DNA of 10,506 nt. Source: a virus. Taxonomy: Monodnaviria > Loebvirae > Hofneiviricota > Faserviricetes > Tubulavirales > Inoviridae. The notes under the pieces are model-generated. The model saw only the letters and a program-made list of their open reading frames with translations. It made no database searches and had not been told where the DNA came from. Positions within the stretch are counted from its first letter, which is position 1, and every line of letters starts with the position of its first letter. Position numbers and translations under genes: made by a program. Location of the stretch: IMG/VR virus record IMGVR_UViG_2619619131_000001. One strand, given 5' to 3'. Shown in pieces: positions 1,666 through 10,506 of this stretch.

Positions 1666-1760
1666 GGTGCGCATAATGTGACACGCGTTATGTTGAAAAG
1701 GCCGCTGCGATACTCTCCACCGCAGCGGCCTTTTTATACATAACGTCATTGTGCGCACTG
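1666..1760. other. attP/attL-like imperfect palindrome carrying two inverted dif-like XerC/XerD binding sites around a GC-rich hairpin
   Basis: 1666-1676 GGTGCGCATAA equals the E. coli dif XerC arm exactly (dif = GGTGCGCATAA-TGTATA-TTATGTTAAAT). It is followed by an 11-nt segment TGTGACACGCG and TTATGTTGAAA (XerD-arm-like, 9/11). The reverse complement of 1736-1760 reads AGTGCGCACAA-TGACG-TTATGTATAAA, a second dif-like site in opposite orientation. Between them is the hairpin GCCGCTGCG(1701-1709)/CGCAGCGGC(1721-1729). Confidence 0.55.
1696..1735 (+). terminator. GC-rich stem-loop with flanking A-run and T-run; possible bidirectional intrinsic terminator and/or tip of the att hairpin
   Basis: 9-bp perfect GC stem GCCGCTGCG/CGCAGCGGC with an 11-nt loop, then TTTTT at 1731-1735; GAAAA lies upstream. 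It sits about 110 nt after the hipA stop. Confidence 0.5.
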
Positions 1761-1983
1761 AACCTTAAAGGATTTCAGTGTCCTTACTTAGTTTGTTGTG
1801 TATGGTCATCACCAACGGTAGGACAAGCGTTATCAGGCTGAATATTGTCATGCCTGTGATGCTGCCCACAACAAAATGCTTTATCAGCAGGTCAAGGATT
1901 AAGTCACTGGTTATCTGCATATTGCCTCGTTTAACTGTTCCTTTGATCTTTCTTGGCCTGTTTTTTTGACGTTGGGAAAGGGA

Positions 1984-2199
1984 TCACATTGCCTTTTTTT
2001 TCTTAAGTTCTTCTTTGCTTATTAGATCTTTCACCGCATCATCTAAGTAGTTGTCTATTAAGTGGTTTACTATCTCTGATGGTTTTAGTAGCTCACCTGT
2101 TTTATTACCGATTTCCAGCACTCTTCGTTTTAGCTCCAGTTTTCTGTTTTCGTTAATCCTTACGGTTGTGTCTCCGCGCTTTGTTTCTTTTTTCATCAA
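1984..2199 (-). CDS. Small putative transcriptional regulator (possible ribbon-helix-helix fold), divergent from the replication module; candidate phage repressor
   Basis: 70-71 aa basic protein (MMKKETKRGDTTVRINENRKLELKRRVLEIG...). Predicted short N-terminal strand followed by two helices. Start is TTG 2199 or ATG 2196, with AGAGG on the minus strand at 2211-2207. Its position mirrors RstR-like repressors of integrative filamentous phages. Confidence 0.55.
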   Translation of the reverse strand: MMKKETKRGDTTVRINENRKLELKRRVLEIGNKTGELLKPSEIVNHLIDNYLDDAVKDLISKEELKKKKAM

Positions 2200-2333
2200 A
2201 ATTTACCTCTATGTCCTTTCAATAGAAGGTGATTATTCCATTTTTTTTACACCCGCATAGCGCATGCGTATTTACAATGCGTGTTAAATGTGATTATGAT
2301 GCACGCATGCGGTAAATATATTGCGGTGCAAAC
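2200..2333. promoter_or_regulatory. Divergent promoter/operator region between the regulator and the replication module
   Basis: Two copies of the palindrome CGCATGCG (2261-2268 and 2304-2311, 43 bp apart) plus a related CGCATAGCG (2254-2262) and further ATGCG half-sites. Candidate sigma70 promoter TTTACA (2271-2276), 18 bp, TATGAT (2295-2300), which would place the start site inside the second palindrome. Confidence 0.5.
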
Positions 2334-2579
2334 ATGTCTCACGAGATTGTTTACTACGATTACTTCCCTAGTTTTGGTTCTGACTTGACAGCTCCTGTTT
2401 ACTGTACAGCCCGTGTTGATGGTCTTTGGTTAAAATGTGACTCCTTTGATGAGCTGATCAATTACTGCCTTCGTTTGATTGGTCCAGAGTTCGTTCTTGT
2501 TCCTCTTTCAGTTCCTTCCGGATCGTGGGTTGGCTATCTGGATATGGTTGAGGCTTCCGATATGGTTTCGGGGGAGTAG
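2334..2579 (+). CDS. Hypothetical small protein upstream of and tightly coupled to Rep
   Basis: 81-aa ORF with non-repetitive composition. Its TAG stop (2577-2579) is 1 nt before the Rep ATG at 2581. No clear SD upstream of ATG 2334, so confidence is low. Confidence 0.35.
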
Positions 2580-2580
2580 T

Positions 2581-7638: not shown

Positions 7639-8850
7639 ATGCCAGTTATCACGGGTAATCTGGGGCAGGGTAAAGGCATTGTTGCAGCTTATTTTGCCTC
7701 ACTTTATTATCGCCGTGGATTGCGGGTTGCAGCAAATTTTCCGCTTAACACTGAATGTATGTCATCAGGTTCGGATAACCCCGTTACGGTTATTCCCGCC
7801 ATGCCCCGCATTGAAGACTTTGAGCTTCTTGGTCGTGGATGTCCTGAAAATGAAAAAACACGCTTCGGGGCGTTATTTCTTGATGAGTGTGCGACATGGC
7901 TGAATACCCGTGGTTTTGCCCGTAAGGACAGATTACCGTTAATTGACTGGCTGATACATTCCCGTAAGCTGGGCTGGGATGTTTATCTGATTTCACAGCA
8001 TGAAGATATGATTGATTCCCAGATAATTAAGGCGATGGGGGCTAAAATTATTCGCTGCCGCCGTCTTGATGAATTACGTGTTCCTGTGATTACGCCACTG
8101 ATGGAATTATTCAGACCAGGAAAAACAGGGGTTGCATCAGGCAAAAGGGGGATTATTCCTCATTACGTGGCTGCCAGTACGTTTCTTTATGACGGCACGA
8201 TTCACGCGGCACGTCGTCCCGTAGATAAAATCATTATCAGGGCTGCGGATTATTACAACGTTTACGACACTAATTTCATTTTCTCTGACGGAATGGAGCT
8301 GCTTAATGGCCGTTTTGTGGATATGCGTGCTGTTTATTCTGTTTTGCCCGGGCGCACACTTAAAACAATGAATCCGTTATCTCAACAACCCGAAAAAAAG
8401 GCCACCCCACAGAAAAAGCCGTGGGGCAAGCTGATTGCCTTTCTTTTCCTCGTCACCGCGATGATTGCCGTTGCCCGACATTATTTCTCCGGCGATCGGG
8501 AGGCTAGTGCCGCTGTCCCTCCTGTGCCTGAAAGCACCGTGACACCTGCACATCCTTTGCCTGCGTCTACGGTTGTATCAGAGCTGAGACAGAAAAAACC
8601 AGATGTGCTTCCGGTATCAAAGGAGTGGCGGCTTGCCGGATATGTCAGGGGAGCAAGTCCTTATTTTGTGCTGCTGGGTCCGGCGGGTCAGGTGCGACGT
8701 TATACCGCTTTTCAGCCATGGAACGGCAGCGCCACGGAACTGAATGTTGACGGTGAAAAAGTGACGTTCTGGTCAGGCTCATCGGGAACGGCATCAAAGG
8801 GGGATGTGCTGACTGACAAAATGCTTTCGTTTGATGTGAATGGTAAATAA
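7639..8850 (+). CDS. Phage assembly ATPase pI / Zot-like protein
   Basis: 403-aa ORF with N-terminal P-loop GNLGQGKG (nt 7654-7677), an internal TM segment ([15 protein letters not shown]) and a C-terminal periplasmic region, the domain layout of inovirus pI / zonula occludens toxin-family proteins. Confidence 0.9.
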
Positions 8851-9163
8851 GACAGAGGACACTCCGCTCGCCGCAGACCCAGCGACCGAACGTAGTGAGC
8901 GAGTGGTCGAGGAAGCGGAAAGGCACCATTACCGGCCCCGGGCACTTACGCTCTGCTGCCTGCTTCGGGCACTTATGCTCTTTGCTGACATGGTCAACCA
9001 GCTTACTGGCTGTGCAGAACCCGACGCGTACAGGCGATGGTGTTGCCTGTTGATGAAACTGATGGCTGACAGCGTGCCCCCCTGTAGTGTGCACCGCAGC
9101 TTAATCCGTGCTTTGTTTCCATGGACTGCACCTGCCTGCCGGACTGACAGGTCTGATGGATGA
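8840..9163 (+). CDS. Hypothetical Cys-rich small protein (possible cargo gene downstream of pI); coding status uncertain
   Basis: 107-aa ORF whose ATG overlaps the end of pI. It spans repeat copy 1. Three of the four differences between the repeat copies fall on third codon positions in this frame and the fourth is V to I. No convincing SD. Confidence 0.25.
8873..8929 (+). repeat. 57-bp direct repeat, copy 1 (pI-pIV intergenic insert)
   Basis: CCGCTCGCCGCAGACCCAGCGACCGAACGTAGTGAGCGAGTGGTCGAGGAAGCGGAA; 53/57 identical to the copy at 9203-9259. Confidence 0.9.
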
Positions 9164-9202
9164 ACAGACAGGCAGAATGCTTCATCTTCGCGTGTGGTGG
9201 TA

Positions 9203-9259
9203 CCGCTCGCCGCAGATCCGGCGACCGAACGCAGTGAGCGAGTGATCGAGGAAGCGGAA
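9203..9259 (+). repeat. 57-bp direct repeat, copy 2 (pI-pIV intergenic insert)
   Basis: CCGCTCGCCGCAGATCCGGCGACCGAACGCAGTGAGCGAGTGATCGAGGAAGCGGAA; lies 330 bp (a multiple of 3) downstream of copy 1. Confidence 0.9.
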
Positions 9260-9297
9260 TATCTTCATGACTGAAAAACAGCACTTAACGGTATAAC

Positions 9298-10506
9298 ATG
9301 ATGAGATTGATTAACTTACTGACAGCATTTCTTTTTTTGACTTCGGCGTGTGTGCATGCCTCGTCTCCGGTCTTTTTTGTTGACCGTATTCCGCTCAATG
9401 CAGCGATACAGCTGGCTCAGGAAGATATTTTCAGGCGTCAGTATGCGTTGCCGCCTGAACTTGCCAGCGATACCCGTCCGGTGACGCTGGACTTAAGTCT
9501 GACGGGCGATCAGAAAAAACAGCGTGAAGAGTATGTGCGCTGGCTCAGACAACTGAATATTTCTGTTGAGACTCGTAATGGCGTGGATCATTATCGCTCG
9601 TTTAAACCCGTGGCTGCGCCGGAAAAACTGGTTTCATGGGTATATACACCATTTAACCGTTCGCCAGCTTATCTTGCCGCCGTGCTTTCGGGTACAACGA
9701 CAGGGCGTTCATCACAGGTATCTTCAGAGAATGCGGCTGCATCGTCTCCGGTAACTTCCGGCTCATTCTTATCAGGTGAGGGTGATTCACTGGTTTTCAG
9801 GGGGACACGTTCAGAACTGGCACGCCTTAAGGAGCTGGTTCCGCTGGTTGATGTTCCGGCTCAGGGGGTTGTGGTAACGGGGTATATTTATGAGGTGCAG
9901 ACAGGGCGCTCTGAAGGTTCGGGGCTGGCACTGGCTGCAAAACTGTTATCAGGGCGTTTTGGTGTCAGCGTGGGTTCCTCATCCTCGATGGGGAATTACA
10001 TTTCATTCAGCTCCGGTACGCTGAATGCGATGTATGAACTGTTCAGAACAGATAACCGCTTTAAGGTGGTATCCGCGCCGCAGCTGCGCATGGATTCAGG
10101 CAAGGAAGCGACGTTTTCTGTTGGTGAACAGGTTCCGGTTCTTGGCAGCGTGTCTTATGAGGATGGTAAAGCCGTTCAGTCCGTGACGTATCGTGATTCG
10201 GGGGTGATATTCAAAGTTAAGCCGGTTATCACGTCGTCGCGTATCAGCCTGAACGTCAATCAGCAGTTAAGTAACTTTGTCAAAACGGATACGGGCGTGA
10301 ATGATTCGCCAACGTTGCTCAAGCGTGAGGTGGATACGTCGCTGACTCTGAAAGATGGCGATATTGTGTTGCTGGGTGGTCTGGCAGAAAACAAGGATTC
10401 GCAGGCCAACACAGGATTATCATTTCTGCCAAAGAGCTGGAGTCAGAAGTCTGACGAGAAGAGCCGCACGGATATGGTTATTCTGTTACAGGTCAAAAAA
10501 GTTTGA
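9298..10506 (+). CDS. Phage export secretin (pIV-like, secretin/GspD family)
   Basis: 402-aa ORF with N-terminal signal peptide ([21 protein letters not shown]) and a C-terminal secretin-type region (...[32 protein letters not shown]...). Its stop coincides with the last base of the window. Confidence 0.9.

Follow-up and report, generated by a model that had tools for sequence, protein, structure and literature searches.

An inovirus genome, probably intact and integrated by XerC/XerD, at the Escherichia coli dif site next to hipA

What occupies the DNA immediately downstream of the hipBA genes in the virus record IMGVR_UViG_2619619131_000001, and does its position beside a persistence module mean anything? 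The stretch analysed, referred to throughout as the window, is 10,506 nucleotides (nt) long, and we read its positions 1666-10506 as an intact inovirus (filamentous phage) genome that was integrated by the host recombinases XerC and XerD at the chromosomal dif site of E. coli, a reading to which we assign a probability of about 0.85. One complete unit of this phage measures 8,894 nt, of which 8,841 lie inside the window. The earlier note on this DNA had described a near-complete filamentous prophage beginning about 80 bp past the hipA stop codon, and both its extent and its start agree with what we found, the left attachment site (attL) opening at 1666 in a dif-derived sequence.

The left boundary is fixed by comparison with the prophage-free chromosome. 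The host flank, outside the element, consists of hipB (1-267, + strand) and hipA (267-1589, + strand), as annotated in RefSeq for the matching loci, and 76 nt separate the hipA stop from the start of attL. E. coli K-12 MG1655 is 100% identical to window 443-1679, and the match ends exactly at 1679; the last part of it, GGTGCGCATAATGT (1666-1679), is the XerC arm of dif plus the first three bases of its centre, after which the sequence diverges from dif. No complete 28-nt dif was found anywhere in the window when up to three mismatches were allowed. Because identity to K-12 stops at 1679, and because prophage-free K-12 has an intact dif 76-77 nt past the hipA stop, we take 1666 to be the left phage-chromosome junction at dif.

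The same comparison bears on the proximity to hipBA. The prophage had been said to abut this module directly; as a statement of position this stands, but it carries no functional meaning, since dif occupies that very place in prophage-free K-12 and the adjacency is therefore incidental. An alternative, that the phage works together with hipBA as a functional unit, perhaps by exploiting or modulating HipA-mediated persistence, can appeal to the physical adjacency only, and we regard it as extremely improbable. All dif-integrated E. coli inoviruses that we examined sit at the same place after hipA, and they include unrelated phages with three types of replication protein (Rep) and at least three structural modules, while the backbone of the phage studied here is also found at hcxB/ybiB and on a Citrobacter plasmid, far from hipBA. 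In addition, a strong hairpin with a run of T residues (1700-1735) stands between hipA and the phage genes. Beyond the shared dif neighbourhood, we see no evident link between the phage and hipBA.

The right boundary and any second dif site had been placed outside the window, and extension of the sequence downstream bears this out. The window is an exact substring of contig JNRL01000033.1 of assembly GCA_000704665.1, which ends 58 nt further on, within the att core, in ...CATCAGTGC. Another contig of the same assembly, JNRL01000077.1, begins in the att core with CGCATAATGTGACACG, is 100% identical to window 1670-10506 over 8,837 nt, and carries attR, AGTGCGCATAATGTATATTATGTTAAAT, 54 nt past the stop codon of the secretin gene (the last codon of the window), followed by ydeT fimbrial genes. 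This attR is a regenerated dif, matching at 27 of 28 positions, and is also seen in complete genomes that carry relatives of the phage; the element is thus not truncated and its second att site is present. Joined at their 1-nt overlap, the ends of the two contigs spell a phage-phage junction, AGTGCGCATAATGTGACACG, and this junction is read through in complete genomes with tandem relatives, which display the same pattern of attL, junction and attR. Given that the same assembly holds a second identical copy and then attR, a tandem array is most likely, and the simplest reading of the source strain is the order hipA - attL - copy 1 - junction - copy 2 - attR - ydeT. That the contig break reflects repetition is supported by a sister strain with one copy (our locus L025), which was assembled straight through. 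Elsewhere, the contig of a third strain (L030) holds a phage-phage junction, and one metagenome scaffold, 8,731 nt in length, has att sequence at both ends, which overlap by 11 nt.

How would a phage of this kind enter dif? No recombinase open reading frame (ORF) is present in the element, as judged from the ORF list and Pfam. attL, the equivalent of the first phage site attP1 (1666-1698, + strand), is made up of a XerC arm, GGTGCGCATAA (1666-1676), the first base of which is chromosomal, an 11-nt spacer, TGTGACACGCG, and a XerD-like arm, TTATGTTGAAA (1688-1698); attP1 itself reads [A/G]GTGCGCATAA - TGTGACACGCG - TTATGTTGAAA. It is followed by a GC-rich hairpin (1700-1735, + strand; stems 1700-1709 and 1721-1730, an 11-nt loop and then five T residues), which would be terminator-like after gene IV in the circular phage and would form the tip of the folded (+) strand attP hairpin. 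Next comes attP2, read from the sequence as an inverted second dif-like site (1733-1759, - strand; AGTGCGCACAA-TGACG-TTATGTATAAA, with a 5-nt spacer), which lies 34 nt from attP1 and is kept in all dif inoviruses that we fetched. As single-stranded DNA (ssDNA) the region is predicted to fold into one long forked hairpin in which the XerC and XerD arms are paired and the asymmetric centre is unpaired; the predicted free energy is -37.6/-37.7 kcal/mol (z -9.1), and 0 of 200 shuffled sequences were as stable. An Rfam search of the window returned one spurious sub-threshold miRNA match, located on this hairpin.

The position of the strand exchange can be narrowed from the arrays. The crossover core common to dif, GTGCGCATAATGT, occupies 1667-1679, and identity to the phage-phage junction begins at 1667. 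In all arrays examined, attL starts with a chromosomal G and the junctions and attR start with a phage A, which places the exchange within this core, on the XerC side. Likeness to the target is likewise confined to the XerC side, the phage centre beginning TGTG where dif has TGTATA. A Citrobacter youngae plasmid has this phage at another Xer site; there attR, AGTGCGCATAA-TGTACG-TTATGTTAAAT, agrees with dif in the centre in TGT alone, as fits a single exchange on the XerC side.

On the predicted fold and by analogy, the attachment region is probably of the CTX-phi type; CTX-phi has an attP1 with a 12-bp spacer and an attP2 with one of 5-7 bp, folded in the (+) strand (PMC4246890). Integration would then proceed as follows: the two inverted, imperfect dif-like sites in the packaged (+) strand would fold into a forked hairpin that mimics the dif duplex, XerC would exchange one pair of strands at the boundary between the XerC arm and TGT, and replication would fix the product, leaving attL, non-functional with its 11-nt spacer, beside hipA and, at the opposite end, attR as a regenerated dif. 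With dif regenerated, chromosome dimer resolution is proposed to keep working. Both the use of ssDNA and the irreversibility of the event are inferred by analogy with CTX-phi. Alternatively, the element could integrate as a double-stranded replicative form through one dif-like attP, in the manner of VGJ-phi, and excise reversibly. On a single duplex, attP1 does offer a XerC arm and a XerD-like arm that can be recognised, and both dif regeneration and arrays are described for VGJ-phi-type elements too (PMC4246890), but the arms are 11 nt apart where a working duplex site has 6-7 nt between them, and the inverted attP2 pairs with attP1 (z -9) in what is the CTX-phi arrangement (PMC4246890). The att module is, moreover, homologous to that of CUS-1, which together with Ypf-phi is classed as CTX type (PMC4246890 Table 2; PMC4266046). 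We therefore consider integration of the VGJ-phi type unlikely.

The earlier note had listed every core inovirus function in canonical order, and each of the features it named is in place, with Pfam and PHROG matches identifying the structural ORFs as inovirus proteins. The order is that of the Ff phages: Rep, a protein at the gene V position, two small membrane ORFs, a pVIII-like coat protein, a terminator, pIII, pVI, pI/Zot and the secretin pIV. All ORFs are as long as their counterparts in relatives. The firmest assignments are Rep (2581-4581, + strand; 666 amino acids, aa), a P2 gpA-type replication endonuclease or rolling-circle initiator (Pfam PF05840 Phage_GPA, E=1.1e-48; phrog_91 'nicking at origin of replication', E=2.4e-128), the pI/Zot-like assembly ATPase (7639-8850, + strand; 403 aa; Pfam Zot, E=2.5e-9; phrog_1675 'morphogenesis (protein I of M13)', E=1.2e-49) and the complete pIV secretin (9298-10506, + strand; 402 aa; Pfam Secretin, E=9e-25; phrog_1012 'assembly (protein IV of M13)', E=7.9e-115), at whose stop codon the window ends. 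The name Zot denotes an assembly ATPase in this context, and there is no evidence for toxin activity.

Among the virion proteins, the pIII-like adsorption protein (5664-7262, + strand; 532 aa) is likewise firmly assigned, with matches to Pfam PF05357 Phage_Coat_A (E=8.5e-9) and PHROG virion structural or attachment proteins (E=4.5e-18 to 1.9e-14). It has a signal peptide and N-terminal domains, among them one of the Phage_Coat_A (TolA-binding) type at residues 129-174, and then a long Gly/Ser linker that leads to an anchor domain at the C-terminus. The linker is encoded by a 39-bp unit, GGSGSGSGGSSGS, repeated 10.9 times at nt 6342-6766 (Tandem Repeats Finder), and its copy number varies among near-identical phages, giving pIII proteins of 385-532 aa. 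Long ORFs on both strands over the linker (e.g. 6170-6775, and 6193-6888 on the minus strand) are spurious, being artefacts of the repeat. The pVIII-like major coat protein (5370-5612, + strand; 80 aa) matches phrog_1646 'major coat protein' weakly (E=0.005), and its sequence has a signal peptide, an acidic N-terminus, a hydrophobic core and a basic C-terminus; between it and pIII lies an intrinsic-terminator-like hairpin (5628-5645 or, taken more broadly, 5628-5655, + strand) with a 7-bp stem, six GC pairs and a TTTTTT tail. The pVI-like minor coat protein (7262-7621, + strand; 119 aa) is assigned from a weak match to phrog_1944 (E=1.6e-4) and from its position. Two small hydrophobic membrane ORFs at the gene VII/IX position, one of 46 aa (5042-5182, + strand) and one of 56 aa that overlaps it (5175-5345, + strand), are annotated in RefSeq relatives and assigned by position.

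The weakest assignment is that of the protein at the gene V position (4612-5037, + strand; 141 aa), a candidate ssDNA-binding protein. It belongs over its full length to phrog_30648 (E=1.6e-95), a family of unknown function, and is co-inherited with the gpA-type Rep in four lineages at 58-86% aa identity. All four members of the family gave sub-threshold matches to PF17426 Putative_G5P (best E=0.0035). A sequence search of the PDB returned no match, hhalign against other gene-V-position proteins was negative, and a single-sequence AlphaFold (AF2) model, with a pLDDT of 35, was uninformative.

The leftward part of the element holds its smaller and less clearly assigned ORFs. Directly inside attL is a conserved, strongly hydrophobic ORF of 51 aa (1765-1920, - strand), which was without match in a family search; the gene calls of L005, L006 and L025 include it, and the segment around it (1667-1925) is 98-99% identical in L001, L002 and L048. 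Other dif inoviruses have a 57-aa ORF in its place. A 70/71-aa ORF (1984-2199, - strand), divergent from Rep and at the position of the RstR repressor, matches phrog_2503 (E=1.5e-27; unknown function) and is a candidate regulator. A divergent promoter region follows (2200-2333), in which a sigma-70-like consensus scan predicts its best + strand site at 2271-2300 (TTTACA-18-TATGAT), with a - strand site at 2342-2315. Directly 5' of Rep is an 81-aa ORF (2334-2579, + strand; phrog_3104, E=4.7e-5), called as a gene in L006, L025 and L026.

Is such an element still able to make particles? It is a complete-looking filamentous prophage, plausibly an active one to judge by its sequence. A prophage of the CTX type could not excise by Xer recombination; instead, the gpA-type Rep would nick one copy and terminate in the next copy of the tandem (or the replicative form would be used), yielding new genomes. 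The gene-V-position protein would coat these genomes, and pI together with pIV, the secretin encoded by the phage, would form their way out, the virions acquiring pVIII, pIII, pVI and the small cap proteins as they are extruded. Production of genomes by Rep from tandem copies is proposed by analogy. That the prophage is instead a decayed, cryptic remnant that no longer makes particles would be in keeping with the inability to excise, with a lineage for which particles are not in evidence, and with its rarity, the pVI-pI segment matching just 25 of 5,426 complete E. coli genomes by megablast. We nevertheless think decay improbable, in view of the full length of each ORF relative to relatives, the 100% identity of the two copies in the source assembly, and the phage-phage junctions and unit-length scaffold found in other samples. 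Recent horizontal movement is implied, moreover, by nearly identical phages in different chromosomal backgrounds and on a conjugative plasmid of Citrobacter.

Several points weigh against the reading of an intact, Xer-integrated phage. The tandem in the source strain, although most likely, is pieced together from two draft contigs whose ends meet in the att core. The CTX-type assignment draws on predicted folding and on analogy, and the gene V function on position and sub-threshold matches. A (+) origin and a packaging signal were not located in the element, and virion release, phage ssDNA and dependence on Xer are predictions from the sequence.

Which phage, then, is this? The layout had been likened, tentatively, to that of the CUS-1 / Ypf-phi family. 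As a reference for this comparison we used the hipA-adjacent prophage of strain UTI89, which we take to be of serotype O18:K1:H7. Its serotype, together with a layout that fits the published one (PMC4266046), suggests that the UTI89 prophage is CUS-1; Ypf-phi itself was compared through its published description (PMC4266046). From left to right the UTI89 prophage has two ORFs on the attL side, a helix-turn-helix regulator, a 350-aa Rep of the II/X family, a 105-aa DNA-binding protein, a coat protein, a 520-aa pIII, a pVI of the DUF2523 family, a 341-aa Zot, a 414-aa secretin and two small ORFs before attR.

Part of the likeness survives this comparison. Insertion after hipA, the overall order of modules and possession of an own secretin are shared, tandem arrays with a regenerated dif have been described for Ypf-phi too (PMC4266046), and the att module is similar, window 1569-1758 (the end of hipA and the att module) aligning at 87.7% nt identity as the only blastn match to the UTI89 prophage. 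The genes themselves, in contrast, do not match. When all 12 window ORFs were compared with the UTI89 prophage by tblastn, the secretin alone matched, at 43% aa identity, and Rep, gene V, coat, pIII, pVI and pI had no detectable similarity. The Rep proteins are of different families (II/X, 350 aa, vs the 666-aa gpA type), the attL-side ORFs are others, and the two YPO2280a/YPO2281-type ORFs that follow the secretin in UTI89 are without equivalents in the window's element, where attR comes 54 nt past the secretin. CUS-1 and Ypf-phi share a 7.1-kb core at ∼99% nt identity (PMC4266046), and nothing near this figure was found with the UTI89 prophage, our inferred CUS-1, as reference. Nor did a link to Yersinia emerge: the 90%-identity clusters of Rep and pI had only E. 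coli names among the members listed, large protein searches with pI, Rep and the secretin were dominated by E. coli and gave no Yersinia-labelled cluster, and neither pI nor Rep had a match when species-representative genomes were scanned. It is thus most improbable that the element is a copy or close variant of the CUS-1 / Ypf-phi phages of E. coli O18:K1:H7 and Yersinia pestis, and it should not be labelled as such. Two other groups had been candidates for CUS-1 and were rejected: the P0088-type phage is an IS110-linked phage at csgC, and the Rep_trans-type phages are further dif inoviruses.

As judged by sequence comparison, the element is a mosaic drawn from a pool of E. coli dif inoviruses, in which three Rep families (Phage_GPA, Rep_trans and G2P II/X) are combined with at least three structural modules. 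The att module (∼100 nt, 1667-1768, comprising attP1, hairpin and attP2) is 88-99% identical across loci L004, L010-L015, L032 and L034, which are otherwise unrelated and represent three Rep families; the differences are concentrated in the loop and in the unpaired bulge at the centre. The segment with the regulator ORF and its promoter (1974-2377) is 97.5% identical to that of Rep_trans-type dif phages (L012, L014, L015), with a breakpoint ∼15 codons into the 81-aa ORF, and accordingly looks like an exchanged immunity or regulatory module. At the regulator position the close relatives L001 and L002 have a different ORF, of 62 aa. Rep and gene V are shared with L004 (89.6% nt), which has a different structural module.

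A further exchange involves the integration module. In IS110-linked phages, which sit between hcxB and ybiB/dinG, the att/regulatory module is replaced by a gene for an IS110-family 'RNA-guided transposase' directly 5' of Rep; an Rfam search upstream of this gene found no RNA. One of these (L036, E. coli O166:H15 JNE070796, NZ_AP041805.1; transposase 2530-3495) is 95.6-97.8% identical to the element from Rep to secretin, and another (L003; transposase 8024-8989) shares Rep and gene V and has yet another structural module. A separate IS110-transposase-linked inovirus occurs in E. coli contigs at ymdA/csgC (L016-L021); its gpA-type Rep is 58% identical to that of the window, a TraX-like gene follows Zot, and the gap between Zot and the secretin holds an 88%-identical copy of window 8864-9259.

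The Citrobacter youngae plasmid mentioned above (OV141394.1, 72421-90489; L048) carries the same phage, 97.5-99.5% identical, in tandem. It is a 363-kb conjugative plasmid of IncHI1B/IncFIB type with CTX-M-15, and as such offers a route by which the phage could move between genera. Among the 5,426 complete E. coli genomes, Rep and gene V are found in 40, as against 25 with the pVI-pI segment, and 11 viral contigs in IMG/VR encode this pI. The INPHARED phages yielded no megablast match to the element; at the protein level, the best tblastn matches listed from INPHARED place its pI at ∼31-35% identity to the pI of isolated phages (Vibrio phages ∼34%, f1 30.7%). The lineage is present, unnamed, in IMG/VR, RefSeq (under generic annotation) and PHROGs, and is an uncharacterised lineage of a well-known kind.

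One more feature has counterparts on plasmids. The gap between genes I and IV contains a non-coding segment (8864-9259, + strand) with a 57-nt direct repeat at either end (8864-8920 and 9203-9259; the two are 93% alike); relatives L001 and L036 have one copy of the repeat and are without the 339-bp segment. A + strand ORF in this gap (8840-9163, 107 aa) was taken as non-coding, as it has no family match and overlaps the repeats. Small ColE1-type plasmids carry an element to which the 57-nt repeat is 92-98% identical, with matches at 304 plasmid places in E. coli genomes and in 1,476 of 72,556 PLSDB plasmids. In one ColE1-like plasmid (L035, 2830-2893), for which Rfam gave no RNAI match, the element lies between the origin side and rop. 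Its orientation relative to rop is presumably that of the pBR322/pUC segment CCGCTCGCCGCAGCCGAACGACC...GGAAGCGGAAGAGCGCC.

In pMB1 vectors that region contains ssiA, an n'-primosome assembly site (PMC3167613), and the 57-nt repeat may be a candidate primosome-assembly or single-strand initiation (ssi) site. Since it lies on the coding, presumably packaged, strand, it could serve as a complementary-strand origin. Its predicted ssDNA fold is no more stable than those of shuffled sequences, and for this reason we hold the ssi idea only as a hypothesis. If it were true, the repeat would prime (-) strand synthesis via PriA, not through an origin of the RNA-polymerase type found in Ff. We tentatively suggest, as a joint proposition that is rather more doubtful than probable, that the lineage took over a ColE1-type ssiA/n'-primosome assembly site as its complementary-strand origin, duplicated in this copy, and that the same backbone swaps its whole integration module, Xer att sites against an IS110-family recombinase of the bridge-RNA type.

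In E. coli, Yersinia and Vibrio, inoviruses that XerCD integrates at dif have been familiar for more than 20 years, and the element is best placed by reference to them. With CTX-phi of Vibrio cholerae it shares residence at dif without an integrase, a long-spacer attP1 and short-spacer attP2 with a predicted forked hairpin, dif homology on the XerC side only, regeneration of dif at attR, and tandem arrays. It differs in its host, E. coli, in its P2 gpA-type Rep (that of CTX-phi being RstA, of the Rep_trans family), in the absence of cholera toxin or other recognisable cargo, and in encoding its own secretin, where CTX-phi uses the host's EpsD; for the element, ssDNA integration is a prediction. 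With the Ff phages (M13, f1, fd) and IKe it shares the gene order, a pIII with Phage_Coat_A and Gly-rich linkers, and a pI 30.7% identical to gene I of f1, but Ff phages are non-integrating, have no att sites and no divergent regulator, and use a Rep of another family (pII).

A third point of reference is the UP-phi viruses and other E. coli dif inoviruses, a group for which we used the UP-phi viruses and loci L004, L010-L015 and L032, UP-phi901 not being matched to any one locus. Shared with these are the dif site, tandem arrangement, an att module at 94-99% nt identity and a hypervariable Gly-rich linker in pIII. The structural module is a separate one, with a pI ∼40% identical to theirs (P0038) and secretin genes at ∼66% nt. 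According to Shapiro and Putonti (2020; PMC7307601), UP-phi viruses combine IKe/I2-2-like structural genes (∼70% aa) with the accessory genes h1 and h2. Neither trait was found in the element: its pI matches were below 60% among the tblastn matches to INPHARED that were listed, those read not including IKe and I2-2, and no ORFs follow its secretin.

What the element adds to the known dif inoviruses is little, and its useful points are corrective: it is not CUS-1 or Ypf-phi, its Zot is an assembly ATPase, and its link to hipBA is positional. The listed carrier genomes are mostly of human isolates, several of them from stool, and a role in gut colonisation is possible, if speculative. Should both parts of the joint proposition above prove true, the lineage would illustrate, compactly and in nature, how plasmids, insertion sequence (IS) elements and filamentous phages exchange origins and integration modules in plug-and-play fashion. 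For E. coli itself, the picture is of a dif site that hosts a mosaic pool of inoviruses, in which one att module is held in common and the replication, regulatory and structural modules are shuffled.

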